Below the pieces are notes generated by a model, which was not told the DNA's origin, searched no databases, and was given only the letters and a program-made list of their open reading frames with translations. A DNA stretch of 64,000 nucleotides from Actinomycetota bacterium (lineage in GTDB: Bacteria > Actinomycetota > Geothermincolia > Fen-727 > Anoxymicrobiaceae): positions 104,534-168,533 of the forward strand of contig JAHJCO010000019.1 in NCBI GenBank assembly GCA_018831265.1, in the 5' to 3' direction. Below, one piece after another: positions 17,026 to 43,570 of the stretch. Every line of letters begins with the position of its first letter. Position 1 is the first letter of the stretch. Position numbers and translations under genes: made by a program.

Positions 17026-17931
17026 ATGGGACAGGAAACCGACGGCCTGCTACACGAGGTCACGGAGAACATCTACCTCCTCAGGGGTGAGAACGGGGGG
17101 CGCTTCCCGTTCCCGTACTCGGTCGTGGTCACCGGCGGGCCCAACGTGCTGTTCGACACCGGGTGCGGCCTGCGCACGCTCGAGCGCCTCCGGGAGCGGG
17201 TGAACATCGACCTCGTGGTCAACTCGCACACCCATCCGGATCACTTCTCCGGCAACCACCTCTTCGGCGGCGTGGAGCTGCTCGTCCCAGAGGCTTTCGC
17301 GGGGATCCTCGCGGACCTCGAGGCGATGTCGGTGCGGCTGGCCGGCGGCGGCGAGCCGGCGGAGCAGTGGTTGTTCATGGTGCGCGAGATCCTCGGGCAC
17401 AGGCCCACCGAGCCCACGGGCACCTTCGTTGAGGGCCGCGTCATCGAGGCCGGGGGCTACGCATTCGAGGCGGTCCACACGCCCGGACACACCGCCGATA
17501 CCTACTGCTTCTACGACCCGGTAAGCCGCGTTCTTCTCTCCTTCGACTACGACCTGACCCCGTTCGGGCCCTGGTACGGCCACGTGGAATCGAGCCTGCC
17601 CGAGACCCGGGCTTCGATCGAGAAGCTCATCGGACTGGAGCCGGGCCTGGTGGTCTCCTCGCATCGGATGCCGCTCTCCGCCGGGATAGAGGAGGCTTTC
17701 CGGGAGTACGACGCGGTCATCGACCGGCGCACCGAGGTGGTTCTGGGCATGCTCGAGAAGGGGCCGGCGACCCCGGAGCAGCTGGCCGACCTCTCTCCCA
17801 TCTACGGGCTGAAGCCCAGCTTCGCCCTCTACCACTACTTCGAGTCGCGCCTGATCGAGAAGCACCTGGAGCTGCTGGTGGAGGAGGGCCTGGCCTCCAC
17901 GAACGAGTCCGGCACCTACTCTCTACCTTGA
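17026..17931 (+). CDS. MBL-fold metallo-hydrolase
   Basis: VVNSHTHPDHFSGN (HxHxDH) motif. Start taken as the internal ATG at 17026. Confidence 0.85.
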   Translation: MGQETDGLLHEVTENIYLLRGENGGRFPFPYSVVVTGGPNVLFDTGCGLRTLERLRERVNIDLVVNSHTHPDHFSGNHLFGGVELLVPEAFAGILADLEAMSVRLAGGGEPAEQWLFMVREILGHRPTEPTGTFVEGRVIEAGGYAFEAVHTPGHTADTYCFYDPVSRVLLSFDYDLTPFGPWYGHVESSLPETRASIEKLIGLEPGLVVSSHRMPLSAGIEEAFREYDAVIDRRTEVVLGMLEKGPATPEQLADLSPIYGLKPSFALYHYFESRLIEKHLELLVEEGLASTNESGTYSLP

Positions 17932-18194
17932 GCAGCCACAAAGTGACTAAACCAGGGGTCAGGCACAATTCAAGTCACAGCCAGGTCGCATCGACGTTCA
18001 TCTCGGGCCGCACCACGTTGCCCTGCTCTTGACAGACCTACATACAGGGTCATGATGTGACTGGTTGAGTAGCCTGAAATTGAATGCTTTTCTCGAGCAA
18101 CCACAAAGTGACTAGGCCAGGGGTCAGGCACAATTCAAGTCACACCATACAGGTTGTCCGGCATTGAAGCTGACATTGAATTGAGCCTGACCCC
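17932..18194. repeat. Two tandem copies of the GGGGTCAGGC-TIR MITE-like element. Each starts with ...CCACAAAGTGACTA(A/G)(A/G)CCAGGGGTCAGGCACAATTCAAGTCACA. The first copy is truncated at the right end. The second ends in GAGCCTGACCCC.
   Basis: Direct repeat of a ~50-bp left end. The first copy begins at the MBL stop codon. Confidence 0.75.
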
Positions 18195-18199
18195 ATTTG

Positions 18200-21100
18200 C
18201 TAGCCGGAGGAGCCTCCGATCGTGTCCGTACCGGCACCGCGGCTGTTCCAGTACATGGCGCGCTCCACCATTATTTTCCCGCCTTCCGTGGTGCAGCGCA
18301 CCAGGACGGAGGCCCGCCCGTTGAGCCCCGCGTCGAGCATGTTGAAGGTCTTGCGCGAGTTGCCGGGCACGGTGTCGTTGACGGTGATGTTCCCCACCCC
18401 GTTGGGCAGGAGGTACTGAATCTCGACGGCGACGTCGCCGTCGTTCGGGTTCTGGACCAGCGTGTAGGTCTCGCGCCCGTTGGTGGTCTCGCCGTCGGGC
18501 AGGTAGAAGGTCACGTGGGGCTGCGCCATCCCGATGGAGTCGTGGCACGACTCCCCCGCTCCCGCGTCCCAGTACATCGCCCGCTCGGCGATGATGGGCT
18601 GCGTGCCGTGCACCTGCGTAGAGCAGTCCTGCCCCGCCAGGACGTCGTTCACCCTCATCGTCTGCCGGGAGTTGGCGGCCATCTGGAATGCGGGCTGGAC
18701 CTGGGGACCGCCGCTGGTCATGTAGGTTATGGTGACGTCCGCCGCGGAGTCGTTCGGGTTCTGTATGAGGACGTAGGTGGTGAAGCCCCAGGCGGTTGTT
18801 CCCTCGGCCAGGTAGTAGTCGTAGGCGGGCGTGGTGGTGCCTGTCGAGTCGTGACCCTCCCGTCGGTTGTTGCGGTACATGGCCCTCTCGGGGATCACCG
18901 GCAGGTCGGAGGCCACCTTGATGGAGGCGTCCTCGGCCCCGATGTCGTCGACCATCGGGAAGGTGGCCCTCCCGTTGGCCGGCACCTGGTGGGCCACCTC
19001 CATGGGGGTCTTCCCCTGGATCATATAGGTGAGCGTGCAGTTCGCGACGCTGGAGTTGGGGTTCTGGACGAGCAGGAAGCACTCGAACCCCCAGTTGGTC
19101 GAGCCCTCCGGCAGGTACCAGGTCTTCGCGGAGGCTGTGATACCGACCGCGGAGTGCCCCTCCTCGAACGGCGTCCCTCCGTTCCACGACATCGTGCGGT
19201 CCACGGCGATCCCCAGGTCGTTGGTGCACTCCACCTTCGTAGAGAAGTCCCGCTCGCCCAGGGTTTCGCGGGGGAAGATGGTGGACTGGCTCATCGCCGG
19301 CATGGAGAAGGCGGGCCCAACCACCTGCCCGGTGTCGGTCATGTAGGTGACCTGGACGTCGGCGGCGCTGTTGTTCGGGTTCTCGACCGATACGTAGGTC
19401 TGGAACCCCCAGGCGGTCGTCCCCTCGGCCAGGTACCAGGTGGGCTGCGAGCCTCCGCCCAGCGCGCGCGCAGCGTTTATCCGGCCCCATCCGAACTTGT
19501 CGTCCCTGCCGCCGTCACCGAGGTCCTCCGCCGTGCTCTCGAGCCTCTGCTCGATCTCGTCGTTGGACATGCCGGGGTTCTGCGAGAAGACCAGCGCACC
19601 CAGCCCGGCGGCCATCGGGCAGGCCATGGAGGTGCCGGACAGGAAGTCGTAGTTCAAGTTGTAGCCCTCCAGGTTGGAGGTGACCGGGTAGGTCGGCAGC
19701 GTCGCGTAGATGTCCTTGCCCGGGGCGCTCAGGTCGACGCTGGAGTTGTACTGGGAGAAGTCGGCCTTCTTGTCCTTATTAGTGGTCGCTGCCACCCCGA
19801 TCACATGGTCGTACCCCGCCGGGTAGCTGATCTCGCTATTCCCGTCGTTCCCGACTGCCGCGAAAAGAGTGCAGCCCTTGTTGTAGGCGTAAGTGCAGGC
19901 GTCCCTTATCGCGGTCGACTGGCTCGAACCCCCCAGGCTCATGCTGATGATGTCGGCCCCGTGATCGGCCGCGTAGTAGATGCCGTTGGAGATCGCGGAG
20001 TTGCTTCCGCTGCCGGCCGAGTCCAGGACCTTCACCGGCAGCACGCGTGCCCCCGGGCAGGTGCCCGCCACGCCCACCCCGTTATCGGTGACCGCGGCCG
20101 CGATGCCGGCGCAGTGGGTCCCGTGCCCCCCGTCGTCGCGCGGCTTGCTGTTGGGGTTGGTCCTGAAGTAGAAGTCGTCGAACCCCAGGCCGCCCTGCTG
20201 CCAGCCCTGGGTAGTGTTGTAGAACCATCCGACACCGTCGGCGTATACAGGCTCGCTGAGAGCAGAGTAGTTGTAATAGAGGTTATAGTAATTGGCAAGG
20301 CCGGGGTCGGTATTATCAACCGCGATCTTGATGTAGTACGTGGCTCCGTTGGTCAGCGTTACCGGGGTCGGGAGCGCCTTGTATATCTCGCTGCCGGCGG
20401 TAGTGACCTCCGATGGGGTGATGGTGTAGTAAGTGATGGCACCGCCGGGCGGGTCGAGGCTGGTTGCGACGCCGACGTAGATGTTGCCCGTTCCTCCCCC
20501 TCCTACCGGGGGATTCCCCACCTTCTGAACCGCGATACCGATGTGGGTGAGCTGGCCACCGGTGCCCTTGATGGACTGTGCGAAGTACCAGTTCTCGAAC
20601 TGCCCCGCGGGTGCCTGGTAGTTTAGCTTCGACTGGGTTATACCGGCGTAGTTGTACCCGTTGGACAGCAGCTTGGACTTCTGGTCGGGGTGCGTGAAGT
20701 CGCAGCCGGTGTCAACGATAGCGATGGTGGGCGGGTTGGAGTATCCCTGCTCGATGTCCCAGGCCTCCTCCATGTCTATGTCGCAGCCTGCCGTGCCGGT
20801 GCTTCCCTCTATGCTCTGCCCGGTGTTCCGGTACCCCCACTGCGACCCGTAAGAAGGGTCGTCCGGCCTGCCGGATGCCCGGTAGACGTAGTTCGGCTCG
20901 GCATAGCGGACATAGTCGCGCGCGGACAGCTCGGCGACCGCCTGCTCGACCGAGACGCCCGGCCGAAGCGCGAGCACCCTGGCGCTCTCACCTCCCGGCG
21001 GCCCGATCTCGCCCAGTACCGTTGCGCCTCCGGCATCCGCCGCGATGCGCTCCCGGCTCGGGGCGTCGACCCCCGGCTCGAAGCCGACCACCACCTGTCC

Positions 21101-21253
21101 GGGGACATACTCGTCGAAGGAGACGCCTGCGGGCGCGGCCCCGGGGAAGGTATCGACCGGCGCCGCGGCGGCGGGAACAGCCGCGAAGGTCACACAGGCG
21201 AGCCCCAGGGCGACAACGAGAACGATGGAGGTGAGAGTGGAAGATCGCCGCAT
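18200..21253 (-). CDS. Secreted S8 subtilisin-like serine protease. Signal peptide, Asp/His/Ser catalytic domain, then six tandem ~105-aa repeat modules.
   Basis: AIVDTGCD, HGTHCAGI and GTSMACPMAAG motifs. Repeats with WYLAEGTTAWGF..Y...QNPN...A.V.VTYM. The GGGAGGCGG SD favours the ATG at 21253. The antisense ORF 18197..20626 is a GC artefact. Confidence 0.9.
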   Translation of the reverse strand: MRRSSTLTSIVLVVALGLACVTFAAVPAAAAPVDTFPGAAPAGVSFDEYVPGQVVVGFEPGVDAPSRERIAADAGGATVLGEIGPPGGESARVLALRPGVSVEQAVAELSARDYVRYAEPNYVYRASGRPDDPSYGSQWGYRNTGQSIEGSTGTAGCDIDMEEAWDIEQGYSNPPTIAIVDTGCDFTHPDQKSKLLSNGYNYAGITQSKLNYQAPAGQFENWYFAQSIKGTGGQLTHIGIAVQKVGNPPVGGGGTGNIYVGVATSLDPPGGAITYYTITPSEVTTAGSEIYKALPTPVTLTNGATYYIKIAVDNTDPGLANYYNLYYNYSALSEPVYADGVGWFYNTTQGWQQGGLGFDDFYFRTNPNSKPRDDGGHGTHCAGIAAAVTDNGVGVAGTCPGARVLPVKVLDSAGSGSNSAISNGIYYAADHGADIISMSLGGSSQSTAIRDACTYAYNKGCTLFAAVGNDGNSEISYPAGYDHVIGVAATTNKDKKADFSQYNSSVDLSAPGKDIYATLPTYPVTSNLEGYNLNYDFLSGTSMACPMAAGLGALVFSQNPGMSNDEIEQRLESTAEDLGDGGRDDKFGWGRINAARALGGGSQPTWYLAEGTTAWGFQTYVSVENPNNSAADVQVTYMTDTGQVVGPAFSMPAMSQSTIFPRETLGERDFSTKVECTNDLGIAVDRTMSWNGGTPFEEGHSAVGITASAKTWYLPEGSTNWGFECFLLVQNPNSSVANCTLTYMIQGKTPMEVAHQVPANGRATFPMVDDIGAEDASIKVASDLPVIPERAMYRNNRREGHDSTGTTTPAYDYYLAEGTTAWGFTTYVLIQNPNDSAADVTITYMTSGGPQVQPAFQMAANSRQTMRVNDVLAGQDCSTQVHGTQPIIAERAMYWDAGAGESCHDSIGMAQPHVTFYLPDGETTNGRETYTLVQNPNDGDVAVEIQYLLPNGVGNITVNDTVPGNSRKTFNMLDAGLNGRASVLVRCTTEGGKIMVERAMYWNSRGAGTDTIGGSSG

Positions 21254-21427
21254 AACTACCGCCTCCCGGTCAGCCATAAGACAAAACGTGCCTGCATGGG
21301 TTTATTCGGTCATCTGGTGCCACCCCTTAACCCTGCAGCCCGTGTTGCATGATGGCCAGGCCTTTCTGCAACTCACCTGTCGTAGGTTTGCGGGGAGGCG
21401 ATCCGGCTGAGGAGGAGTCTGCCGGGG

Positions 21428-29325: not shown

Positions 29326-30621
<1,296 letters not shown>

Positions 30622-30754
30622 CTGAAACCGGGGTCAGGCGGGATTCAAGTCAGCCAGGTCGAATAGGCGGACTGATTGGGTTGCACCACGATACCCGGGC
30701 TTCAGTAAGGCCTATGTGCAAGGTCACGATGTAGCTGAATCCCGCCTGACCCCA
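30622..30754. repeat. GGGGTCAGGC-TIR MITE-like element (TGACTGAAACCGGGGTCAGGCGGGATTCAAGTCA ... TAGCTGAATCCCGCCTGACCCC), about 20-bp TIRs
   Basis: Starts at the enolase stop codon. The internal sequence resembles the 17932..18194 copies (CCAGGTCG...GTTGCACCACG). Confidence 0.75.
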
Positions 30755-30838
30755 ACCGTAGTCGTTCCCGCCCAGTGAGAAAAGACCTCAACCACCAGTT
30801 CCCCACGACCTGAAACCTTGCTTTGATAGACTGAGCCG

Positions 30839-32464
30839 GTGAATAGAGAGCAGTTGACCAAGGCCGCCGGAGACGCCGGCACTACCGCACGCAAGGTATC
30901 GCCCGCGTTCCTGCTCGCCGGGCTGGGGATGGCGCAGTTCATCAACACCTACGACACAGTGGCGATGAATGTGGCTGTCTCCAAGGTGGTGCAGGACCTA
31001 CACACGACGGTCACCGGGGTACAGTTCGCCCTGGCCTTCTACACGCTCGTGATGGCGGCCTTCATGATCCCCGGCGCAAAGCTCGGCGACGTATGGGGCA
31101 AGAAGCGCACCTTCACGCTCGGGGTCGCGATGTACGGGACGGGAGCGCTCATCACGTCGCTGTCACCCAACCTCACGGTCATGATCCTCGGATGGTGCGT
31201 GTGTGAGGGCCTGGGGTCTGCCCTGATGATACCCTCCATCTACGCGATACTGCCCGCCGCGTTCAAGGAGCCGGAGCAGAGGGTGAAGGCCTTCGCGGTG
31301 ATGGGTGCTATCACCGGTGCGGGGGCGGCCCTGGGCCCGCTCATCTGCGGAATCATCTCCACCTACCTCACCTGGAGGGTATCCTTCGCGGCCGAGTTCG
31401 TGGTGGTGCTGGTGATCATCGGCATGTCGCTCAGGATCAAAGGGCCCCCGCGGGTGGAGGACCGCCCGGAGTTCGACACGCTGGGGGCGGCGCTCTCGGC
31501 TGTGGGTATCGGCCTGCTCGTGACGGGGATACTGCAGGCGAACCACGTATCGACCAAGGGGTTCTGGCCGGTCATCGTGCTGGTCGGCGCCGGAGTGCTG
31601 GTCCTGCTCGGGTTCCTCTACTGGCAGGTCAGGCGCAAGCGCGCCGGACGGTCGCAGCTCATGGACCCCGCGATGCTCAGGGTCAGGCAGGTACAGCTGG
31701 GACTCCCACTCTCCGTGGTCATGATGTTCATGATGTCCGGTGCCCTCTTCGTCATCCCGGTGTTCCAGCAGATGGCGCTGGGCTTCGAGCCGGTGACCAC
31801 GGGCCTGACCTTCCTGCCCAACACGCTGGCGATGATCGTCTTGAGCCAGGTGACGGCGCGCCTCGTGCCGCGCGCGGGCAGGAAGTGGTTCGTCTTCTCC
31901 GGGCTCATCGTAACCAGCGTGGGCATCGGCGTAATAGCCGCGATGATAGACACGAGCTCCACGGCTTGGACGTTCCTCCCGGGGACGCTTCTCATGGGCG
32001 TGGGCATCGGCATGGTGATGGCGCCGCTGCAGGACCTCATCCAGTCGTCGGTTCCGCTCGAGAAGCAGAGCGAGATATCGGGGGTCTCCAGGTCCTTCTT
32101 CAACCTGGGAAGCTCGCTCGGGACGGCGATTGCCGGAGCGGTGCTGACAGCGGTGCTGATAAGCGGCATAACCTCGATGGTGATGGCCAGCCCTGCCATC
32201 ACTGCGGATCAGAAACAGCAGATTACGGCGGCCGTGCGTGTGGACACCACGACCATGAGCGACGAGGAGCTCAAGGAGTTACTCGATCAGAAGAACACGC
32301 CCCAGGAGCTCACCGATACGCTGGTCGGGATTAACTCGAAGGCGCGCAACAGGGCGCTGAAGACGGCCCTGGCGATGGTGGCCCTCATCGGGTTCATCGG
32401 CGCCTTCCTCGGGCTGATGCTGCCGGGGGACCGGCAGGGCCGTCCAAACCCGCCCGGCACCTGA
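30839..32464 (+). CDS. MFS transporter (14-TMS drug:H+ antiporter-like)
   Basis: 541 aa, 14 hydrophobic segments, MFS signature loops. GTG start at 30839, or an ATG slightly downstream. Confidence 0.85.
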   Translation: MNREQLTKAAGDAGTTARKVSPAFLLAGLGMAQFINTYDTVAMNVAVSKVVQDLHTTVTGVQFALAFYTLVMAAFMIPGAKLGDVWGKKRTFTLGVAMYGTGALITSLSPNLTVMILGWCVCEGLGSALMIPSIYAILPAAFKEPEQRVKAFAVMGAITGAGAALGPLICGIISTYLTWRVSFAAEFVVVLVIIGMSLRIKGPPRVEDRPEFDTLGAALSAVGIGLLVTGILQANHVSTKGFWPVIVLVGAGVLVLLGFLYWQVRRKRAGRSQLMDPAMLRVRQVQLGLPLSVVMMFMMSGALFVIPVFQQMALGFEPVTTGLTFLPNTLAMIVLSQVTARLVPRAGRKWFVFSGLIVTSVGIGVIAAMIDTSSTAWTFLPGTLLMGVGIGMVMAPLQDLIQSSVPLEKQSEISGVSRSFFNLGSSLGTAIAGAVLTAVLISGITSMVMASPAITADQKQQITAAVRVDTTTMSDEELKELLDQKNTPQELTDTLVGINSKARNRALKTALAMVALIGFIGAFLGLMLPGDRQGRPNPPGT

Positions 32465-32483
32465 CTCCTTGAGCCCGGTAATT

Positions 32484-32628
32484 GTGAAAGAATGCCTCTG
32501 AAAGAATACCTCAGACCAAAACTTTCACGGGAAGGCGAGATCCAGCGGTTTGCACAGCGATGAAAGAAATGGTCTGAGGTTTTCTTTCATTCACAGCGAT
32601 GAAAGAAATGGTCTGAGGTATTCTTTCA
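32484..32628. repeat. Array of the 29-bp imperfect palindrome TGAAAGAA-N2-(GGTCTGAGG or its complement)-N3-TTCTTTCA. One partial unit plus three full units (32499..32527, 32561..32589, 32600..32628).
   Basis: Lies between the convergent MFS and hydrolase genes. The last unit ends 1 nt from the hydrolase stop codon. Confidence 0.8.
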
Positions 32629-32629
32629 T

Positions 32630-33847
32630 TCAGGCGGGCATCACTGAGGCCAGCCAGTCGAACATCCTCTTGTCGTAGAGAGCGCGGGCCTTGGGCTCGC
32701 AGTGCCAGTTGGCCCCCTCCTCGCGGGTGAACGGCACAAGCGCCTTCGGTGACTCGAGAGCGTCGTACACCTCCCGCGACTGGCCGGGCCAGAACTGCTC
32801 GTCGTCGGGGTCCGCGATGAACATTGGGCAGGTTATCTGCTTGATCACTTCGCGGGCGTTGTATTCCTGCGAGGCCTTGATCCACTCGAAATAGCTGTCG
32901 GCCCCGTAAGGCTTCATGCGCCAGGCGACCGTCTGGCGCGTCTCCTGCCCCATCATCTTCAGGGCGAGTCCCATCTCCTTGTTGAACTCCTCCTCCTCAC
33001 CGGCCTCCAGCAGCTTCATCATGCGCTTGGGGAACCTGCCGGCCACCGCTGTAGAGACGTCCATCACCCCGGGGTCCGCGATTCCCGCCGCGATGCGGTG
33101 CTCGAAGGCGAGCGCGCGGAGTATCCAGTAGCCGCCCTGACTGATCCCGGAGAGCGCGATGCGGTTCGGGTCGACATCCGGGCGTGCGACGAGAAAGTCC
33201 ACCACCGGGGTTATGACAGCCTCCCAGTCCGGGCGGAACGGCAACTTGTGCATGAAGAGCATGGCGTTCTGGCCCGGGCCGTCGAAGACCAGTGCGGCAT
33301 ACCCCCGCGCGAGCGCCCCCGCCACCCCGGAGCCCCACATCGCCACGGTCGGCCCGTCGCTGCCGTTGTTGAAGATGATGGTCGCCCATGGCCCGCCGGA
33401 GTCGTCCGGCTTGAAGAAGTAGCCGGGCATGGGGGTCTTCTCGTACGGTATCTCCACCCTCTCGGCCGGCGGGGAGAGCCTCGAGCAGAACCGGTCGAAG
33501 CATTCGATGTGCTCCTTCCAGTAGTCGGCGCCCCTGCCAGGGTCGTCCGTCCCGTCGATCATAGAGAGCGTCGCGGCGTAGTACGCGGAGGCGCGGAGGT
33601 AAGCCTGCCGGGCGCTCACGTCGTTCCCGCTCCCCACCGACTCGTCGGCGTACCCCCTAACCCGCGCCGCGGTCTCCAGCCAGCCGTCAACCCAGCTCTC
33701 CGCGTCGCCGGACCGGATACACTCGGCCGTCATGAGGATCTCTCCGGCGTCGGCGGTTCCGAAGTAACACGAGCCCAGCATTATCTGGAGCTCGAAGTCC
33801 ATCTGCTCGTGCTTGAAGAACCACTGCTTAGCCTTCGCGGCGGCCAT
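32630..33847 (-). CDS. Alpha/beta-hydrolase (dienelactone-hydrolase / S9-like)
   Basis: GISQGGYW nucleophile elbow. Start taken at MAAAKAKQW (33847). The 742-aa ORF upstream extension is R/G-rich junk. Confidence 0.75.
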   Translation of the reverse strand: MAAAKAKQWFFKHEQMDFELQIMLGSCYFGTADAGEILMTAECIRSGDAESWVDGWLETAARVRGYADESVGSGNDVSARQAYLRASAYYAATLSMIDGTDDPGRGADYWKEHIECFDRFCSRLSPPAERVEIPYEKTPMPGYFFKPDDSGGPWATIIFNNGSDGPTVAMWGSGVAGALARGYAALVFDGPGQNAMLFMHKLPFRPDWEAVITPVVDFLVARPDVDPNRIALSGISQGGYWILRALAFEHRIAAGIADPGVMDVSTAVAGRFPKRMMKLLEAGEEEEFNKEMGLALKMMGQETRQTVAWRMKPYGADSYFEWIKASQEYNAREVIKQITCPMFIADPDDEQFWPGQSREVYDALESPKALVPFTREEGANWHCEPKARALYDKRMFDWLASVMPA

Positions 33848-33936
33848 CGGTAAACCTCGCTTTCGTCCGTCCCTCTCGAGGGTGCAAGCCCCCTCACCCT
33901 GCCCTCTCCCCCGGGGGGGGAGAGGGTTCAATAGTA

Positions 33937-34332
33937 TCACCGCCGCAGGATGACCGCCGTGGAGGTGGAGGTCGATATCAGTCGCCCCTCCTCGTCGGTG
34001 ATCTTCGCCTCGAGGAACGATATGTTCCGCCCCCTCCTGGTCACCGACCCCTCGCCGATGAACTTGCCGCGCCTCATGGGTCGCAGGAAGTTGATCTTCA
34101 GCTCGGCGCTGCTGAACGTCTCTCCCTCCTCGACGGTGGTGGCCATCGCCGAGCCCATCAGCTCGTCCGCGAACACGGCCAGGAAGCCGCCCAGTACGTT
34201 GCCCACGGGGTTGTCGAACCGGTCGTCGACAATGGTCCAGGTCCAGCGGGTGTAACCGTCCTTCATCACCTCGATGTCGAAGCCCATGGTCCTGTCGCAC
34301 GGCGGCGGCATGGCTATCTCGTCCGAGCGCAT
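33937..34332 (-). CDS. PaaI/hotdog-fold thioesterase
   Basis: NPVGNVLGGFLAVFADE ... hotdog motif. 131 aa. Confidence 0.8.
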   Translation of the reverse strand: MRSDEIAMPPPCDRTMGFDIEVMKDGYTRWTWTIVDDRFDNPVGNVLGGFLAVFADELMGSAMATTVEEGETFSSAELKINFLRPMRRGKFIGEGSVTRRGRNISFLEAKITDEEGRLISTSTSTAVILRR

Positions 34333-34504
34333 GGTGGCTCTCCTTTACTTGCGCACTACCTGGCATAGATTCTAAACCCGGGCGTTGAATCCCGCACCCG
34401 GTCCGGCGTGACAACCCGGGGCAGGGCATCGGGCCCGGGCGTCGTATAGGAACCGTGCACGAGGAGTACAGGGATTGTAAGTGCCTGGCACGGGTCGGTG
34501 GGGG

Positions 34505-36220
34505 ATGGACTACAACATCAAGATCGGCGGGGCGGCGGGTCAGGGCATCCAGACCATCGGTGACACGCTCTCCGCGGTGTTCGCACGGTCGGGCTACCAC
34601 CTGTTCTCGCACCAGGACTACGAGTCGAGGGTGCGCGGTGGGCACAACTTCACCTGCATCAGGCTCTCGGACACCCCGGTGTACGCCCCGCGCGACCCCG
34701 TGGACGTACTCGTCGCGCTGGACAACGCGAGCATCGAGCGGCACACCGGGGAGCTTTCCTCCGACGGCAAGGTCGTCTACGACTCCGGGGGCTTGAAGAG
34801 GAAGGTCGACGATCCCCGGTTCGTAGACGTTCCTTTCGTAAGGCTCGCCGAGGAGCACGGGGGTAGGAAGGTCATGGCCAACACCGTGGCCTCAGGGGCG
34901 GTGCTGGGGATGCTGGGCGTCGAGGTGGACCTGCTGGTCGAGGCGCTCACAAGGGCGCTCAAGCACCCCACCCCCGAGATACTGGAGGGGAACGAGAGGG
35001 CCGCGCGCGCGGGGCACTCCTACGGCGTCGAGCACTGCCCGGACTGCCGGTTCGCGGTGTCGGGGAGGAGCGTGCGCAAGATGGTCATCGAGGGGAACCA
35101 GGCGATAGCCCTGGCCGCCATCGCGTCGGGCTGCAGGTTCTACTCCGCCTACCCCATGACTCCCTCCACCGGGATACTCAACTTCATGGCGTCGAAGGCC
35201 GCCGATTACGGCCTGGTCGTCGAGCAGGCCGAGGACGAGATGTCGGCCATAAACATGATCCAGGGGGCCTCCTTCGCCGGGGTCCGGTCCATGACCGGGA
35301 CCTCGGGGGGCGGCTTCGCGCTGATGGTGGAGGGCATGTCACTGGCCGGGATGACCGAGACCCCGGTGGTGGTGGTGCTGGCGCAGCGTCCCGGGCCGGC
35401 CACGGGCTTTCCCACCCGCACCGAGCAGTCGGACCTGCTGTTCGGGCTGTTCGCGGGGCACGGCGAGGTACCGCGTATCGCGTTCGCCCCCGGCACCCCC
35501 GAGCAGGCGTTCCGGGCGGTCAACAGGGCGTTCGACCTGGCGGAGAAGTACCAGGTCCCGGCCCTCATCATCACCGATCAACACTACGCGGACTCACGCT
35601 GGACCCTGGAGGGCATAGACCCCGAGACCTTCGTCTACAACGACTATCGTGTCGGGGGGGAGGCCTTCGCCGAGCTCCCCGAGTACGCGAGGCACTCCTT
35701 CACAGACAGTGGGGTCTCACCGCTGGCGGTCCCCGGCGACGCGCCCCACCTGGTGGTGACCGACTCCGACGAGCACGACGAGGAGGGGCACATCGTAGAG
35801 GACGCGGAGACCAGGGTGAAGATGGTGGAAAAGCGCCTGCTACGCAAGCTTCCGCTCATAGGGGCCGAGATGGAGCCGCCGGAGCACTACGGCAGCGACT
35901 CGCCGGAGGTGGTGCTGGTCGGCTGGGGCTCGAACTACGGGGTCCTGAGGGAGGCCGTGGACGCGCTCTCCGGGGAGCGGGAGGTCGCCATGCTGCACTT
36001 CTGCGACCTGTGGCCGTTCCCGCTTCCGGCCAGGCAGGAGTTCCTGGAGGTCCTGCGGGCAGCGAGGACCGCGATCTGCGTGGAGAACAACGCCACGGGC
36101 AAGCTGGCCTGGCTTATCCGGGCCGAGACCGGGTTCGAGTTCGCCGAGCGCATCAACAGGTTCGACGGAAGGCCGTTCACGTGTGAGGGCCTCCTGGAGG
36201 AGATAGATGGACGCCTCTGA
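34505..36220 (+). CDS. 2-oxoacid:ferredoxin oxidoreductase alpha subunit (gamma-alpha fusion type)
   Basis: N-terminal gamma-like IKIGGAAGQGIQT. Adjacent beta subunit. Confidence 0.9.
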   Translation: MDYNIKIGGAAGQGIQTIGDTLSAVFARSGYHLFSHQDYESRVRGGHNFTCIRLSDTPVYAPRDPVDVLVALDNASIERHTGELSSDGKVVYDSGGLKRKVDDPRFVDVPFVRLAEEHGGRKVMANTVASGAVLGMLGVEVDLLVEALTRALKHPTPEILEGNERAARAGHSYGVEHCPDCRFAVSGRSVRKMVIEGNQAIALAAIASGCRFYSAYPMTPSTGILNFMASKAADYGLVVEQAEDEMSAINMIQGASFAGVRSMTGTSGGGFALMVEGMSLAGMTETPVVVVLAQRPGPATGFPTRTEQSDLLFGLFAGHGEVPRIAFAPGTPEQAFRAVNRAFDLAEKYQVPALIITDQHYADSRWTLEGIDPETFVYNDYRVGGEAFAELPEYARHSFTDSGVSPLAVPGDAPHLVVTDSDEHDEEGHIVEDAETRVKMVEKRLLRKLPLIGAEMEPPEHYGSDSPEVVLVGWGSNYGVLREAVDALSGEREVAMLHFCDLWPFPLPARQEFLEVLRAARTAICVENNATGKLAWLIRAETGFEFAERINRFDGRPFTCEGLLEEIDGRL

Positions 36221-37058
36221 CGAGTTCAAGGGCCAGAAGCCGGCATGGTGCCCGGGGTGCGGCAACTTCGGGATACTGACGGCCTGGCGCAGGGCCATGG
36301 CGGACCTCGGGCTGAAGCCGCACCAGCTCACGGTGGTCTCGGGGATAGGTCAGTCCGGCAAGTTCCCGCACTACACGCAGTGCAACACCTTCAACGGCCT
36401 GCACGGGCGCACCCTGCCAGTGGCCACGGGGATACGGCTTGCCAACCACGAGATGCCGGTGGCCGCGTTCGCGGGGGACGGTGACTGCTACGGCGAGGGG
36501 GGCAACCACTTCCTCCACGCGATGCGGCGCAATATAAACGTCAAGCTGTTCGTGCACGACAACCAGGTCTACGGGCTGACCAAGGGCCAGGCCTCCCCGA
36601 CCAGCGTGGTCGGGATGAAGACACCGGTGCAGCCGGAGGGGGTCCTCTCCGACGAGATGAACCCGGTGGCCCTGGCGGTGGCGATGGACTGCAGCTTCGT
36701 GGCCCGCGGTTTCGCGGGAGACCTCGACCAGTTGGCCGAGCTGATGAAGGCGGCAATGGAGCACAGGGGCTTCAGCCTGGTGGACATCTTCCAGCCGTGT
36801 GTGACATTCAACCGGCTCAACACCTACCAGTGGTACAGGGAGAGGGTCAGGCCGCTGGAGGCGGAGTACGACCCGGGCGATCGCGTCACCGCCTGGCAGC
36901 GCGCGCTGGAGTTCGAGGACACCATCCCCACCGGCATCCTGTACAGGCACGAGCGACCCACCTACGAAGAGCGCGTGGCGGCGCTGGCCGCCGGCCCGCT
37001 GGTGAAGCAGCCGTTCGACGCGTCGAAGCTCGCGGCCGCCTTCCGCGAGTTCTACTGA
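36207..37058 (+). CDS. 2-oxoacid:ferredoxin oxidoreductase beta subunit (TPP-binding)
   Basis: CPGCGNFGIL and GDGDCYGEGGNH TPP motifs. Overlaps the alpha subunit stop. Confidence 0.9.
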   Translation: MDASDEFKGQKPAWCPGCGNFGILTAWRRAMADLGLKPHQLTVVSGIGQSGKFPHYTQCNTFNGLHGRTLPVATGIRLANHEMPVAAFAGDGDCYGEGGNHFLHAMRRNINVKLFVHDNQVYGLTKGQASPTSVVGMKTPVQPEGVLSDEMNPVALAVAMDCSFVARGFAGDLDQLAELMKAAMEHRGFSLVDIFQPCVTFNRLNTYQWYRERVRPLEAEYDPGDRVTAWQRALEFEDTIPTGILYRHERPTYEERVAALAAGPLVKQPFDASKLAAAFREFY

Positions 37059-37059
37059 C

Positions 37060-37176
37060 TGAAAGAAGACCTCAAACCATTTCTTTCATTCTGGAGGATG
37101 AGGCGGACTGAAAGTTTTGGTCTGAGGTAATCTTTCACAGGTTTCTGTGAAAGAATCGGTCTGAGGTAATCTTTCA
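37060..37176. promoter_or_regulatory. Three-unit module of the TGAAAGAA...GGTCTGAGG...TTCTTTCA palindrome (37060..37088, 37109..37137, 37148..37176) filling the 5' region of the CoA-transferase-GNAT gene. The last unit overlaps the ATG.
   Basis: Units read directly. The GAGGT SD-like sequence sits in the loop of the last palindrome, 8 nt before ATG 37176. Confidence 0.75.
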
Positions 37177-39056
37177 TGATCGAGTATGACCCCGAGGCGC
37201 TGACAAGGCGGTACCCCGGGAAGTTCGCGCCCGACGAGAAGGTCTTCGATGCCATCCGCAGGGGCGACCACCTCTACGTCGGCACCGGCTGCGGCGAGCC
37301 TCAGCACCTGCTCAAGGCGCTGGCCGCATTCGTGGACGACAACCCCAAGGCGTTCTTCGACGCCGAGGTGTTCCAGGTCTGGACCCTGGGGGTCGCTCCT
37401 TACGCCGAGGAGAAGTTCCTCTCCAACTTCCGGCACAACTCCTTCTTCATCGGGGACAACACGCGACAGGCGGTGAACGAGGGGCTGGCCGACTACACGC
37501 CCGTGTTCCTCTCCGAGGTGCCGGACCTGTTCCGCCGGGGACTGGTTCCCATCGACGTAGCGCTCATCCAGGCATCACCGCCGGACCGCAACGGCTACAT
37601 GAGCCTGGGTGTCAGCGTAGACATAACCAAGGCGGCGGTCGAGGTCGCGGACAGGGTAATCTGCCAGGTCAACCCCCGCATGCCGCGCGTGTTCGGGGAC
37701 TCCTTCATCCACGTCGAGGACGCGACCTTCCTGGTGCACTTCGAGGAGCCGCTGCTGGAGTATACGGCAACGGTCCCCGGCGAGCTGGCCCGTAAGATCG
37801 GGGGGTACGTGGCCAGGATTGTCGAGGACGGAGACACCATCCAGGTCGGTTACGGGAGCATACCGAACGCAATCCTGGCCGGGCTCGCCGAGAAGAAGCA
37901 CCTGGGAGTGCACACCGAGCTGCTGAGCGACGGCATCGTCGACCTCACGCGCTCCGGGGCCGTGGACAACAGCATGAAGGCGGTCGATAAGGGCAAGACG
38001 GTCGCAACGTTCTGCATGGGCACCGCGCCCACCTACGAGTTTATCGGGGACAACCCCTCCATCGAGTTCAGGCCCATAGACCGGACCAACAACCCGCTGG
38101 TCATCGCGGCCAACAGCCGCATGACCGCTATCAACGGCGCGCTGGCCGTGGACCTCACCGGCCAGTCCACCGCCGAGTCAATCGGCCCCATGTTCTACTC
38201 GGGCATCGGCGGCCAGGCCGACTTCATGAGGGGGGCGGTGCTCTCCCCCGGGGGGAAGTCGATACTGGTCCTGCCCTCCACCACCGCGGACGGGGAGACC
38301 TCCCGGATCGTGCCAAGCATCCCCGAAGGGGCGGGCGTGACCCTGACCCGCGGGGACATCCACTACGTGGTGACCGAGTACGGCATCGCCTACCTGCACG
38401 GCAAGAACATCCGGCAGCGGGCCATGGAGCTGATCGCCATCGCCCACCCACGGTTCAGGCAGTGGCTCATCGACGAGGCGAAGGGCTCCAACCTAATCTA
38501 CAGCGACCAGATCTTCGTCTCCGGCAAGGAGGGGGAGTACCCCGAGGAGCTCGAGAAGCCCCGCACCACCCGCGCCGGCCTGGAGATACTGCTGCGCCCG
38601 GTCCGCATGAGCGACGAGCCGCTGATCAAGGACTTCTTCTACTCCCTGTCCGACCAGAGCAACTACCGGCGGTTCATCATGCTGCGACAGCGGCTCTCGC
38701 ACGAGGTCCTGCAGAAGTTCGTGGCCATAGACTACACGCGTGAGATGGCGATTCTGGCGACGGTGCGGGAGGAGGAGATGGAGAAGGTGGTCGGCATGGG
38801 CCAGTACGTGGTCACGGGGGACACGCACACGGCCGAGGTCGCGCTGGCCGTGCGGGACGATCACCAGAAGCAGGGTATCGGCACCGAGCTGCTCCAGCAG
38901 CTCGAGCGGGCGGCCCGGCGCCAGGGCCTCCTGGGTTTCACCGCCGTGGTCCTGGGCGAGAACAGGCCGGTGATGAAGATGCTGGAGCGCTCCGGGTATG
39001 ACGTGCACAAAAGCAGCTCGGAGGGGGTCGTCCACCTCACCGCCAACTTCCGCTGA
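37176..39056 (+). CDS. Bifunctional acetyl-CoA hydrolase/transferase-family domain fused to a C-terminal GNAT acetyltransferase domain
   Basis: N-terminal ~430 aa matches the CoA-transferase family III-like Cat1/Ach1 fold (GTGCGEPQ ... GIGGQADF). C-terminal GNAT Q/R-x-x-G-x-G/A motif HQKQGIGTELL. Paralog at 48006..49898 (-). Confidence 0.8.
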   Translation: MIEYDPEALTRRYPGKFAPDEKVFDAIRRGDHLYVGTGCGEPQHLLKALAAFVDDNPKAFFDAEVFQVWTLGVAPYAEEKFLSNFRHNSFFIGDNTRQAVNEGLADYTPVFLSEVPDLFRRGLVPIDVALIQASPPDRNGYMSLGVSVDITKAAVEVADRVICQVNPRMPRVFGDSFIHVEDATFLVHFEEPLLEYTATVPGELARKIGGYVARIVEDGDTIQVGYGSIPNAILAGLAEKKHLGVHTELLSDGIVDLTRSGAVDNSMKAVDKGKTVATFCMGTAPTYEFIGDNPSIEFRPIDRTNNPLVIAANSRMTAINGALAVDLTGQSTAESIGPMFYSGIGGQADFMRGAVLSPGGKSILVLPSTTADGETSRIVPSIPEGAGVTLTRGDIHYVVTEYGIAYLHGKNIRQRAMELIAIAHPRFRQWLIDEAKGSNLIYSDQIFVSGKEGEYPEELEKPRTTRAGLEILLRPVRMSDEPLIKDFFYSLSDQSNYRRFIMLRQRLSHEVLQKFVAIDYTREMAILATVREEEMEKVVGMGQYVVTGDTHTAEVALAVRDDHQKQGIGTELLQQLERAARRQGLLGFTAVVLGENRPVMKMLERSGYDVHKSSSEGVVHLTANFR

Positions 39057-39136
39057 CTAAGATAGGGGTCAGGCGGGAGTCTATTCACATGGTTGTTGGC
39101 GTGACTTGACTGGTGCCTGACCCCGATTCTAGTCAG
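39054..39136. repeat. GGGGTCAGGC-TIR element with extended TIRs CTGACTAAGATAGGGGTCAGGC / GCCTGACCCCGATTCTAGTCAG
   Basis: Begins at the stop codon of the preceding gene. Confidence 0.75.
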
Positions 39137-39666
39137 GCGTTGAGCTTGTTCTTCACCTTGTCCACCTTGGGAGCCACCACCATCCTGCAGTAAGGCTGCA
39201 TGGGATTCTTCGCGAAGTACGCCTGGTGGTACTCCTCGGCGGGGTGGAAGGCGACCAGTGGCTTCACCTCGGTGACGATCGGCTTGTCGTAGCGATCCGC
39301 GATCCGCTCCATGAACCGCTCGACCCGCTCCTTCTGCTCGTCTGAGCCGTACAGGACTACCGAGCGGTACTGGGTCCCCACGTCAGCCCCCTGGCGGTCG
39401 GGCGAGGTGGGGTCGTGGGTGTAGAAGAAGAACTCCAGCACGTCCTCCAGGGGCACGGTGCCCGGGTCGAACTCCACCTCGACGACCTCGGCATGGCCGG
39501 TCCTGCCCCGGCAGACCTCCTCGTAGGTCGGGTCGGGTGTGATCCCGCCCGCGTACCCGGGAGTCGCCCGGATGACCCCGGGGATGCTCGCCAGCGCCGC
39601 CTCCGTGCACCAGAAGCAGCCGCCCCCCAGGACGATTGTCTCGGTCCTGTCACTCATCATCCTCAC
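39133..39666 (-). CDS. msrA: Peptide-methionine (S)-S-oxide reductase
   Basis: [10 protein letters not shown] active-site motif. Confidence 0.9.
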
Positions 39667-40030
39667 CCCTGAGCTTGAGCGATATCGAGTTCACGCAGTG
39701 CCGCGTGTTCTTCGGGGTAAGACCTTCTCCCTCGAAGACGTGGCCCAGGTGGCCGCCGCAGCGCGCGCAGGTTATCTCCGTCCGGAAGCCGTCCGCGTCG
39801 GTGGTCCGCACGACCGCCCCCTCGATCTCGTCATCGAACGCCGGCCACCCGCAGCCCGAGCGGAACTTGTCCACGGACCTGTAAAGGGGCGCCTCGCACC
39901 TCCTGCATACGTAAGTACCGGGCTCGAAGCAGCCCTCGTATTCGCCCGAGAACGGCATCTCGGTGCCCTTGTCGACCATGACGCGCTCTTCCTCGGGGGT
40001 CAACTCGTTCAGCTTCATGTCATTCTCCAT
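39650..40030 (-). CDS. msrB: Peptide-methionine (R)-S-oxide reductase
   Basis: CxxC...CxxC zinc site and the [17 protein letters not shown] catalytic region. Overlaps msrA by 17 nt. Confidence 0.9.
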
Positions 40031-40036
40031 AATAGA

Positions 40037-40132
40037 GGGGCGTCGGACACTTTCATTGCGTTATGACGCTAACGACATCGGCCTGGTCCAACGGCACTGC
40101 AAGTGTCCGACCCCCCGGTTCGTCCAAGGGTC
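40037..40132. repeat. GGGGCGTCAGAC-family MITE-like element (GGGGCGTCGGACACTTTCATTGCG ... CCAACGGCACTGCAAGTGTCCGACCCCCCGGTTCGTCCAAGGGT)
   Basis: Shares TIR and internal core with 14831..14928 and 63020..63186. Confidence 0.7.
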
Positions 40133-40410
40133 GGTCATCCCTTACGTCCCGGTGTAACTTTTGTCACATGGAGCGTAGCGCCTCCCCCTGCGTCTGGCAT
40201 ATGAGCCCGGTCAACCCGGGCCCCACCCCGCGCCCACCCGGGCGCCCGCAGTGAGAGGCGCTGATGTCGGGAGTTCAACGCCCGGGGCCCGAATCCTGCA
40301 CGCGCCTGAGATTATTCCGAAGTCTGGCCCCGTCATTCGTGACGGTTCAGTCACGGGACCATTTTCCCGATATACCATGTGGGGGTCGGACGCCTATCCA
40401 GGGGGTAGTC

Positions 40411-43400
40411 ATGGGCAAGAGAGCGACCGCACCGATTGCATGCTTTCTCGTGCTGGTGGGACTCGTGTTCGGGGTCGGGTGGAACTGCCGGTCGGCGAGC
40501 GCGGGGCGGGCGGAGATCTCCGGCGACCACGTGCCGGGCGAGGTAATCGTCAAGTTCAAGCCCGCGGTGGCGGCCAGCACCGAGGACGCCGTACTGGCAA
40601 CGGAACGACTCACAGTCAAGCACGAGAACGAGCGGCTTGGCTTCAAAGTGGTCGACCTTCCCGGAGGCACCTCGGTTGCTGAGGCCGTGGCCGATCTTTC
40701 TGCCGACCCACGGGTGGAGTATGCCGAGCCCAACTACATCGACCACGTCCTCGATGAGCCTGCGATGGTCCCCGACGATCCCCTGTACCCCAGCCAGTGG
40801 CACATGCACGGCTTCGCCGAGGGCGGCATCGACGCCCAGACCGCCTGGGACACCGAGGAGGGCGACCCCACGGTCATAGTGGCGGTGGTGGACACCGGGG
40901 TAGCCTACGAGAACTACGGGAGTTACAGCCAGGCGCCGGACCTGGCGGGTACCACCTTCGTTTCGCCGTACGACGCAATCGACCTGGACGGGCACCCGAA
41001 CGACACTAACGGCCATGGGACGCACGTGACCGGGACCATAGCCCAGACGACCAACAACGCGCTGGGGTGCGCCGGCGCAGCCCACGGGTGTACCATTATG
41101 CCTGTGAGGGGCATCGGTACGCATTCCCAGATGGCCGATGCCTACACCTGGGCCACCGACCACGGGGCGGATGTGATCAACTACAGTGGCGGCGGTAGCG
41201 CTTCGGAGACAAAGAGGGCCGCCTGCCAGTACGCGTACGACAACGGTGTCACCATCTGCGCCGCTACCGGGAATGACAACGGCCCGATTATTTACCCGGC
41301 GGCATATGATCTGTACTGCATCGCCGTAGGGGCCACCGACCGTAACAAGAACCGCGCATGGTACTCCAACTACGGTCCGCAGATAGACGTTGTCGGTCCC
41401 GGTGGGGACACGACAGGCGGGTCGGTGAACGGCGTCTGGCAGCAGACCTACGTGACCGAAGACGACCCCTCCAGCGGCTTCAATTACCAGGGCTGGCAGG
41501 GGACGTCAATGGCCACGCCTCACGTGAGTGCGACGGCTGCTCTCTATATCTCAAACTCGGGGATAATCAACAACCCCGACGCGGTGAGGTCCCGTCTCCA
41601 GACCACGGCACACGACCTCGGCGGAGCCGGCTGGGACCAGTACTTCGGTTACGGGCTGGTTGACGCGAACCTCGCGGTGATAGCCGACAATCCCGTGCCG
41701 GTCACCACATCCATTTCGCCTGACAACCGGAACGCCGGGGCCCCCGGCTTCACCCTGACCGTCAACGGGGCGGGATTCGTAGCGGACTCACAGGTCCGCT
41801 GGAACGGCTCAGACCGCACCACGACCTACATATCGGGCAACCAGCTGACGGCGCAGATCGCGGCCGGAGACATCACAACCGCCGGGAGCGCCCTGGTCAC
41901 CGTGTTTAACCCCGCTCCGGGGGGCGGCACCTCCAACGTACAGACATTCGACATCCAGACCCCGGTGAACCCGGCACCGAGCATTTCATCGCTCTCACCT
42001 GACCACGCGACGGCCGGCGGCCCCGGGTTCACCCTGACCGTCAACGGTACGGGGTTCATCGGTGATTCGCAGGTGAGCTGGAATGGCGCGAACCTTCCCA
42101 CCACTTACGTCTCGAGCACCAGGCTCACGGCTACCGTCCCGGCGGCGAGCATCGCCGGCGGAGGGGCCGCACAGGTGTGCGTGTCGAACCCCCCGCCCGG
42201 GGGAGGGGAGTCGGCCGCGAAGTCGTTCTCCATCGTCCAGGCCGCCTCGGAGTGGTACCTGGCCGAGGGCACGACCGGTTGGGGCTTCGACACCTACGTA
42301 TCGATCGTCAACCCCAACGACAGCGCGGTGAACGCTCAGGTGACCTACAACACAACGAGCGGCCCGATGGACGGAGGCACGGTGAACATGCCGCCCGAGA
42401 GCCGGGCCACCGTCTACCCCAGGGACGTCCTGGGCGAGGCCGACTTCTCGACCACGGTGACCTGCGCGGGGGGAAAGCCGATAGCGGTGGACCGCACCAT
42501 GACATGGACCGGCACGGGGGCGGCCGCCGCCGAGGAGCACTCCTCCATAGGGGTCACGGCCCCCGCTACCACCTGGTACCTGCCCGAGGGCTCGTCCGCA
42601 TGGGGGTTCGAGACCTGGCTGCTCATCCAGAACCCTGGCGCGACCGGCGCGACCTGCCAGGTCACCTACATGCTGGAGGGCGAGCCGCCGGTCACGGTCC
42701 AGAAGGGCGTCCCGGCCGGCTCCAGGCAGTCCTTCAACATCGCGGAGGACATCGGGACCAGGGATGCCAGCATCTCCGTTGTGTCCGACGCGCCCGTCAT
42801 CCCCGAGCGCGCCATGTACAAGGACGCCCGGCGCGAGGGCCACGACTCCATAGGCACCACCACCCCGGCGGCCGACTACTACCTGGCGGAGGGCACCACG
42901 GCCTGGGGGTTCACCACCTACGTGCTGGTGCAGAACCCGCAGGACCAGGCGGCCGACGTGACCGTCACCTACATGACACCGGAGGGTGCGCTCGAGCAGC
43001 CTGCCTTCAGCCTGCCCGCGAACTCACGCAAGACCATAAGGGTCAACGACGTGAGCCCCGCGGCCGGCTACCCCATAGACGTCTCCAACACCGACTTCTC
43101 GACCCGGGTACACGCCAGCAAGCCCATAATCGCGGAGCGGGCTATGTACTGGGAGTCCGAGACGGGCCAGGCCTGCCACGACTCCATCGGTATGAGCGAG
43201 CCGCACGCGACCTTCTACCTGCCTGACGGACAGGCGGGAGCCCAGGTGGAGACCTGGACCCTGGTGCAGAATCCCAACGGCACCCCGGTCGAGGTCGAGG
43301 TGACCTACCTCTCGCCCGACGGCACCGCGAACAAGACCTTCACCGTCACCATCCCCGCCAATTCCCGCTCTACCTTCAACATGGCCGATCAGGGCGTAGA

Positions 43401-43521: not shown

Positions 43522-43570
43522 GTGGGGTCAGACCCGTGAACTTGGATCTACCTGCGAGGGTCTGACCCCG
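43517..43570. terminator. Hairpin GGGGTCAGACCC-N23-GGGTCTGACCCC immediately after the protease stop codon (GGGTCAG repeat family)
   Basis: Inverted repeat read directly. Confidence 0.6.

Follow-up and report, generated by a model that had tools for sequence, protein, structure and literature searches.

What are the short inverted repeats that recur at the ends of genes in an uncultured actinobacterium, and from where did they arise? The question is raised by a 64,000-nt stretch of an Actinomycetota genome (assembly GCA_018831265.1, contig JAHJCO010000019.1, positions 104,534 to 168,533), hereafter the window. The original prediction, made from the nucleotides alone, had described at least eight loci in it as a single family resembling miniature inverted-repeat transposable elements (MITEs) or repetitive extragenic palindromic (REP) sequences, and had proposed either an active non-autonomous element family or a genome-wide terminator or insulator system. 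We consider it likely, with a probability of about 0.8, that these elements derive, as non-autonomous copies, from the terminal inverted repeats (TIRs) of an apparently single chromosomal gene encoding a Y1 (HUH) transposase, of the type of the REP-associated tyrosine transposases (RAYTs) or the RAYT-like tyrosine transposases flanked by TIRs (TIRYTs). The gene sits elsewhere in the same genome, between recR and the gene for a CYTH-domain protein.

Alignment of the element ends defined the repeat unit as a 35-nt module, nTGACT-N6-GGGGTCAGGC-N3-AKTCAAKTCA, which is longer than originally described. Counting both strands, the window contains 12 exact copies of the decamer GGGGTCAGGC (0.36 expected from dinucleotide-preserving shuffles), and 11 of TGACT-N6-GGGGTCAGGC with up to two mismatches (0.36 expected). 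An nhmmer profile of the ~38-nt end, used to detect the modules, found ten strong and two weak copies in the window, and none in 44 unrelated JGI metagenome loci (414 kb), the closest metagenome match there to a neighbouring CoA-binding protein being 70% identical. A table of positions showed each module to comprise three conserved blocks, separated by spacers of variable sequence and fixed length, although conservation at positions 13-35 is inflated by the choice of loci from metagenome-assembled genomes (MAGs) that matched this pattern. Each block contains GTCA or TGAC, junctions within arrays generate the palindrome AGTCA-C-TGACT, and the TGACT at positions 2-6 is complementary to both the GGTCA of the core (with one G-T pair) and the AGTCA at positions 31-35, all of these positions being invariant. 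The same table revealed no conserved GTAG in the module.

These modules, which we term family A, form six elements in the window: inverted doublets that fold into hairpins, of which four are plain, one solo copy, and one 255-bp composite, itself bounded by inverted modules. All were delimited with nhmmer, and only the solo copy has a strand of its own:

980-1085: E1, an inverted doublet, with a partial left arm at 982-1005 (+) that lacks the TGACT block, and a complete right arm at 1048-1085 (-)
17943-18197: E2, the composite, with modules at 17943-17980 (+) and 18108-18146 (+), and an inverted partial module at 18176-18197
30618-30765: E3, a long-form inverted doublet of 148 bp, with modules at 30618-30654 (+) and 30729-30764 (-)
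39053-39136: E4, a short inverted doublet of 84 bp, with modules at 39054-39090 (+) and 39099-39135 (-)
44614-44690: E5, a short inverted doublet of 77 bp, with modules at 44614-44652 (+) and 44652-44690 (-)
47972-48009, minus strand: E6, the solo module; its TGA (complement of 48006-48008) terminates the gene at 48006-49904 (-)

Hence six of the eight loci originally grouped together carry modules. The other two, at 12936-13068 and 43517-43570, were rejected as members: both are profile-negative GGGGTCAGACCC...GGGTCTGACCCC hairpins with only a GGGGTCAGAC-like core in common with the family. The supposed tandem pair at 17932-18194 is instead the composite E2, in which the outer modules are inverted and an internal module is forward. 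Its interior consists of a long-form spacer extending to ~18085 with a decayed right arm, followed by the fixed junction GCAACCACAAA and the second forward module. The ~75-nt spacer of E3, GCCAGGTCG...GCACCACG...CCTA, is of the same long form, and alignment of 17943-18100 with 30618-30765 bears out the internal sequence that the elements had been said to share; at least eight further copies of this spacer exist. The genomes of E. coli and Stenotrophomonas maltophilia are ~4.6 Mb and ~4.9 Mb in length, respectively. Their ~600 and >1600 REPs (PMC3333891) correspond to densities of ~1 per 8 kb in the former and ~1 per 3 kb in the latter, and the 12 modules in the 64 kb of the window, or one per 5.3 kb, are therefore not far denser than typical REPs, as had been thought.

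The evidence for the origin of the modules comes from the partner gene. No Y1 transposase gene was found in the window itself. The search for an IS200/RAYT-type transposase with matching ends, which the original prediction had proposed as a check, did find one in the same genome. Assembly GCA_018824995.1 includes a contig (JAHJFB010000018.1) that is 100% identical to positions 34683-55189 of the window, and an exact-protein look-up of the flavodoxin encoded in the window found a 100% match only in this assembly. Another of its contigs (JAHJFB010000042.1, locus L097) encodes a 279-aa Y1/HUH transposase flanked by the same modules, which supports the origin of the repeats as a non-autonomous family. 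Searches for domains and structural relatives were run on the 96% identical, 280-aa ortholog at L010:2241-3083, from the MAG JAZDFZ01. This protein contains HUH (NHYHLL) and tyrosine (ARYIVINPV) motifs, and scores 35.5 bits against Pfam Y1_Tnp (gathering score 23) and 84 bits against NCBIfam NF047646, 'REP-associated tyrosine transposase' (cut-off 80). Its best sequence match in the PDB is 4ER8, E. coli TnpA-REP (E = 0.007), with both motifs aligned, and its C-terminus resembles a sigma-70 region-4 helix-turn-helix (HTH), with a score of 21.7 bits that is under the Pfam cut-off of 24.1.

The arrangement of modules around this gene is conserved. In L010, two forward modules precede the gene and an inverted one covers its stop codon; L041 (96%), L042 (80%) and L097 likewise have forward modules on the upstream side and an inverted copy at the stop, and the L043 ortholog (75%) has a forward GGTGCCAGGC-type module upstream, with a decayed and weakly scoring inverted copy at its stop. 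The locus is also syntenic, its place beside recR being conserved in five close genomes. The order is dnaX-ybaB-recR-transposase-CYTH-FtsX in L095-L098; the 96%, 80% and 75% orthologs, from other samples, have the same neighbours as far as their contigs reach, two being followed by the CYTH gene and one preceded by a recR-like 3' end. Across ~390 kb of the lineage, surveyed with tblastn and by inspection of open reading frames (ORFs), this was the only Y1 gene flanked by modules. A second gene for a Y1 and HTH protein, a paralog 31% identical to the module-flanked transposase (L018:1551-2321, minus strand, in the related MAG), was ruled out as module-associated, its flanks containing no family-A modules.

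Such flanking ends are a wider property of this protein family. Database relatives at E <= 1e-10 number 5456, most of them 280-290 aa long and many with a recorded HTH. Inspection of three homologs with 43-47% identity found inverted ends flanking all of them, of 35 nt in L091 (GATGGGGTCAGGTCTTGAAACG...), 24 nt in L094 (ATGGGGTCAGGTCTTGAAAT...) and 17 nt in L093 (TAGGGTCAAGTCTTTCT). These open with (G)ATGGGGTCAGGTCTTGAAA in L091 and L094, and with TAGGGTCAAGTC in L093; a related core, GGGGTCAGG, is present in the ends of two of the three loci, and the outer TGACT block of the module is absent from these ends. The homolog in L091, from another Actinomycetota MAG (47% identity), directly follows recR, and in both L091 and L093 the stop codon of the gene is the TGA inside CCTGACCCC or CTTGACCC. 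No dispersed copies of the ends were found within 10 kb on each side of the L093 and L094 genes, or on the whole 7-kb contig of L091. At L093:9099-10870, in a distant genome of 51% G+C, two tandem copies of the Y1-HTH gene with common 17-nt inverted ends (TAGGGTCAAGTCTTTCT) adjoin a DDE transposase, and therefore the unit looks more like an insertion sequence in that host.

The modules occupy a characteristic position relative to genes. The window has a G+C content of 63-68%, is at least 88% coding, and contains ordinary housekeeping genes, including those for enolase, an MFS transporter, MsrA, flavodoxin, CoA-ligase-like proteins and S8 peptidases with DUF5719 repeats. All of its modules are intergenic, lying outside the ORFs supported by G+C content at third codon positions (GC3) except for 3-8 nt at stop codons, and the neighbouring genes are convergent at three elements, co-directional at three and divergent at none. 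E1 is placed between the stop of the gene at 1-987 (+) and the next plus-strand gene, and E2 between the convergent genes at 16819-17931 (+) and 18200-21277 (-). The stop codon of enolase (TGA, 30619-30621) falls within the left module of E3, the convergent genes flanking E4 (37176-39056, +, and 39133-39666, -) each terminate in a module TGA, and the flavodoxin gene (44683-45189, -) ends with the TAG of the right module of E5. The genes at 37176-39056 (+) and 48006-49904 (-) are inverted paralogs with 75-80% nucleotide identity, encoding an acetyl-CoA hydrolase/transferase fused to a GNAT acetyltransferase.

The proximity to stop codons that had been noted for almost all elements is thus real, and stronger than claimed, as the stop codons of five genes in the window fall inside a module: those of enolase, both acetyl-CoA hydrolase/GNAT paralogs, MsrA and flavodoxin. 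The same is seen in a survey of 75 modules from the window and related loci, 30 of which have a long, high-GC3 ORF ending within 30 nt. The module TGA (positions 2-4) is the stop codon of 19 of these 30 neighbouring genes, and the TAA or TAG at positions 6-8 that of five or six. As modules start with TGA-C-TAA, TGA-C-TAG or TGA-C-TGA, they therefore frequently provide the stop codon of the upstream gene, and REPs with the GTAG tag have been reported to supply stop codons likewise (PMC3733652). The overlaps with ORF starts that had also been described are only apparent, resulting from the longest ORF having been taken; in the public annotation, the start of the gene at 43810-44598 precedes the element.

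Related genomes bear on the history of the modules. The host enolase shares 81% identity with its counterpart in Candidatus Anoxymicrobium japonicum (class Geothermincolia). Scanning species-representative genomes for the module pattern returned at least 40 stretches and, among the matches listed, all came from JAZDFZ01 (Actinomycetota bacterium), which is 92-94% identical to the window where the two overlap. The profile detected 62 modules in 307 kb of the listed JAZDFZ01 loci, occurring as solo copies, exact 35-36-nt head-to-tail arrays, back-to-back inverted doublets, long forms and composites. The E2 unit recurs in this MAG with 86-90% identity at non-homologous loci (L039, 5779-6024; L024, 3918-4079), with partial copies in L032 and L040. 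At orthologous sites, the E6 module is identical in L022. The E5 site (L022, ~4430-4510) has a left module with GGTGCCAGGC in place of GGGGTCAGGC and an unrelated right half; these differences being exactly the two substitutions that define a variant sub-family, conversion or replacement is suggested, rather than random drift. A search for homologs of the enolase found one usable relative (L090, 87% protein identity), in which the gene stops at the same codon, using a TAG of its own, and no module is present, making this an empty orthologous site in a region of ~86% nucleotide identity. Hence module turnover appears slow, given that sites are occupied in both genomes at ~93% identity and one is empty at ~86%, in line with the long persistence described in part of the literature on REPIN populations.

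The transposase origin suggests a mechanism by analogy with the TnpA of IS200/IS605 elements and with E. coli TnpA-REP (PMC3333891). The enzyme would cut and rejoin single-stranded copies of the ends, probably at replication forks, allowing the ends to spread without target-site duplication and without the transposase's own gene being copied. The surviving copies would be those at gene 3' ends, and any role at the level of the host, such as providing 3'-end hairpins on mRNAs, would be secondary. Among 11 doublets no consistent target-site duplication was found at any offset or length, as is expected of HUH transposition. It is also conceivable, if doubtful, that the enzyme mobilises a single non-hairpin 35-nt end, without the hairpin recognition of REP systems, and that the copies favour TGA stop codons. 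The outer TGAC(T) would then be the cleavage or target tetranucleotide, comparable to TTAC in IS608, and such stop-codon-directed insertion would account for the 19 of 30 genes ending in the module TGA, the unchanged lengths of enolase and RecR, and the exact 35-nt head-to-tail arrays. Other small repeat families in this genome, which have a G(G/T)G(T/C)CAG(G/A)C core in common, might be served by the same Y1-HTH enzyme as well.

Several observations weigh against an origin from the transposase ends, or at least against their being mobile. No transposition event was observed among the compared genomes. When L022 and L010 are compared with the window genome, at ~93% nucleotide identity, modules occupy all six sites that can be compared in both, namely the four around the transposase with E5 and E6, one of them being remodelled. 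The originally proposed non-autonomous family is thus supported as regards its origin, through the module-flanked transposase, and not as regards its activity. The region around the empty enolase site in L090 has other rearrangements, including two extra genes. Single modules have no significant hairpin when folded as single-stranded DNA (z = -0.8 for the consensus, -2.0 for 17943-17980) and no GTAG tag, and so the recognition rules of TnpA-REP are not simply transferable. Finally, the likeness to the TIRYT groups defined in 2013 is drawn from their described features, rather than from an alignment of the proteins.

Nonetheless, each of the rival explanations is less probable. The elements could be fixed structural signals kept by the host, whether factor-independent terminators, stabilisers of mRNA 3' ends or insulators, that are immobile and resemble transposase ends only incidentally or for historical reasons. 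This would suit the position of every copy at a gene 3' end, between convergent or co-directional neighbours, the retention of sites between genomes ~7% apart, and the strong folding of doublets (z of -4 to -10). In the window, z ranges from -4.2 to -5.8 for the E2b sub-unit and the four plain doublets (E1, -24.8 kcal/mol, z = -4.2; E3, -35.8 kcal/mol, z = -4.4; E4, -23.2 kcal/mol, z = -5.8; E5, -19.2 kcal/mol, z = -5.2), relative to shuffled sequences, and reaches -10 for a back-to-back module pair in the related genome. Yet a scan of 30001-50000, which covers E3-E6, with the intrinsic terminator consensus detected no terminator-like site at any element, giving no canonical support to the terminator or insulator system initially envisaged, and the solo modules and head-to-tail arrays are common but form no hairpins. 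Nor did the whole window match any Rfam 15 family at gathering thresholds. Structured RNA in the long-form spacer was considered and rejected, as RNAalifold on ten copies recovered only the pairing of the arms, with a covariation term of -0.42. Purely structural signals would also not be expected as the ends of a transposase gene in five genomes, or as a composite unit copied to unrelated loci. We therefore regard this explanation as unlikely, although the elements could still have a secondary role at the RNA level.

The modules might alternatively be a dispersed array of putative binding sites, read by the C-terminal HTH of a domesticated transposase or by a nucleoid protein that recognises GTCA/TGAC half-sites, and kept for chromosome organisation or regulation, as opposed to being spread by continuing transposition. 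The three conserved blocks with their fixed-length spacers, the half-sites in every block and in the palindrome at array junctions, and the below-threshold HTH are all compatible with this. However, the block conservation is partly the product of the pattern-based selection of loci described above, and binding offers no route by which copies could have been dispersed; this view therefore complements an origin from the transposase, rather than replacing it, and as a full explanation it is very unlikely. Least probable, to the point of being hardly credible, is that these are MITEs of a DDE transposon, such as an IS630/Tc1-like element with a TA target, of which the TA in TGAC-TA...TA-GTCA would be the duplicated copy. 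The short TIR-TIR architecture does resemble Correia-type MITEs, and six of the 11 doublets have TA at module positions 6-7 in both arms. But TA is its own reverse complement, meaning the match is explained by the inverted repeat itself, and the dinucleotides are unequal in the other five doublets, with no other length or offset of duplication being consistent. Furthermore, no DDE transposase with module ends was seen in the tblastn and ORF survey of ~390 kb of the lineage, and solo modules and 35-nt direct arrays are unlike the products of DDE MITEs. The transposase-end origin thus remains our preferred explanation.

The window contains further repeats that are distinct from family A. One adjoins E6:

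47931-47966, no strand assigned: a short hairpin, AGTGTTTCAAAAG-TGCCTGACC-CTTTTGCTACACT, which has the shared core but is not a family-A module

Hairpins of its type, GTGCAAAAGGGTCAGGCCCTTTTGCAC, are also found at 58733-58760, 52655-52690 and many loci of the MAG. With the shared core central, short perfect hairpins of the form GTGCAAAAGGG-TCAGG-CCCTTTTGCAC occur at 47931-47966, 52655-52690, 58733-58760 and 4936-4965; these are REP-like palindromes, some of which start with GTAG (GTAGCAAAAG...), and they are common beside family-A modules in the related MAG. Near-perfect palindromes, CTAAGGTGCC-A-GGCACATTAG, are built on GTGCCAGGC at 7740, 7836 (-), 26726, 54165, 61564, 34491 (-) and 4945, and this core is the variant that flanks the 75% transposase ortholog in L043. 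A third repeat family, of ~105-125 nt with the ends GGSGTCAGACGTTT and AAACGTCTGACSCC, is present at 14809-14929, 40024-40156, 63007-63208 and 59818-59858; its ends share a GGGTCAG core, and it adjoins family-A modules in L002, L009 and L020. Clusters of a ~29-nt near-palindromic repeat, TGAAAGAA-N3-GGTCTGAGGT-N2-TCTTTCA, occupy 32485-32630, 37060-37178, 49915-50039 and 58127-58165. Two of these clusters are directly upstream of the two acetyl-CoA hydrolase/GNAT paralogs, and similar units are present in L024 and L090. The interval at 43526-43810 (284 bp, with one GGGGTCAGAC hairpin) corresponds to 198-3621 of L022, where the related MAG has ~3.4 kb of extra genes. Most long direct and inverted DNA repeats in the window are of another kind, encoding the repeated ~100-aa DUF5719-like units (motif YLPEGSSAWGFETWLLLQNP) of large, secreted-looking proteins at 1-987, 18200-21277 (-) and 40264-43521 (+); two proteins with these units have S8 peptidase domains.

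Among known systems, the family shares with IS200/IS605 elements (IS608, ISDra2) the catalytic family Pfam Y1_Tnp, the lack of target-site duplication and a conserved short sequence at the left end, TGAC(T) here and the TTAC target or cleavage site in IS608. However, those elements have subterminal hairpins, whereas here there are terminal inverted repeats, and they move as whole multicopy elements, whereas here the ends alone have multiplied, from a syntenic gene that is apparently present once. Correia elements in Neisseria, as well as ERIC, RUP and BOX, are similarly intergenic, 70-150 bp in length, bounded by terminal inverted repeats, able to fold into hairpins and often co-transcribed with their neighbours. 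Correia elements are associated with TA duplications and have no known cognate transposase; in this lineage there is no duplication, and a cognate Y1 gene is present. Mycobacterial interspersed repetitive units (MIRUs) are short intergenic units of other Actinomycetota; they too can be arrayed head to tail and coincide with the stop codons of neighbouring genes, but MIRUs are direct repeats only, never inverted, without an associated transposase, and have no sequence similarity to the module.

The closest functional parallels are the REP/REPIN-RAYT systems, in which a Y1 transposase at a fixed syntenic locus is flanked by the repeats it is thought to mobilise (PMC3333891, PMC3116915, PMC5581495). 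There, as here, the repeats are extragenic, located at gene 3' ends, mostly arranged as inverted hairpin doublets and sometimes clustered, and their termini often provide stop codons. By contrast, the module is non-palindromic and has no GTAG tag, it forms exact head-to-tail arrays, and many copies in the MAG are solo or in direct arrays. The 280-aa protein is also ~115 aa longer than the 165-aa E. coli TnpA-REP, and has the C-terminal HTH-like region in addition. Highly abundant flanking repeats have been found only with RAYT groups 2 and 3, as shown in Escherichia and Pseudomonas (Bertels et al. 2017).

A closer structural match is provided by TIRtrons, in which long terminal inverted repeats take the place of GTAG REPs on either side of a TIRYT (Di Nocera, De Gregorio & Rocco 2013, BMC Genomics 14:522; PMC3733652). 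Many TIRtron ends, though not all, share GGGGWSAS, and some extend over the gene's 3' end; the TIR families of certain genomes are 'moderately abundant', as single, dimeric and grouped copies (PMC3733652). In this lineage, the module-flanked Y1 protein has the HUH and tyrosine motifs and exceeds classical RAYTs in length; its gene is bordered by long inverted repeats and not by GTAG REPs, the 3' repeat overlapping the gene end; GGGGWSAS fits the core GGGGTCAG, present in 12 of 12 window modules, as well as the ends of the L091 and L094 homologs; and the repeat is scattered in single, dimeric and grouped form. The differences are the host, which is an uncultured Actinomycetota lineage, whereas one section of that paper on TIRtrons names S. 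maltophilia, Pseudomonas and Acidobacteria (PMC3733652), the extra outer TGACT block, and a density of ~1 per 5 kb, compared with the 'moderately abundant' families of the paper. As the repeats lack the GTAG palindrome that defines REPs, and share the TIRtron features that were tested, they are better filed as a TIRtron-type family that works like a REP/REPIN-RAYT system. Hence they are an already described kind of bacterial miniature repeat, in an uncultured actinobacterium, the new points being the host lineage, the outer TGACT block, the 35-nt head-to-tail arrays and the density.

Systems of the REP/RAYT and TIRtron type are thereby extended to an anaerobic, uncultured lineage of Actinomycetota with ties to Geothermincolia, at a copy density typical of REP-rich proteobacteria, and in this case the inverted end of the transposase gene itself is clearly what has been dispersed. 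The modules explain many short intergenic hairpins and several repeat-embedded stop codons in this genome, and probably contribute to contig breaks in MAGs of the group. Given the size of the protein family, and the GGGGTCAGG core in two of the three distant loci, it could therefore serve to study how Y1 enzymes recognise ends that do not form hairpins.

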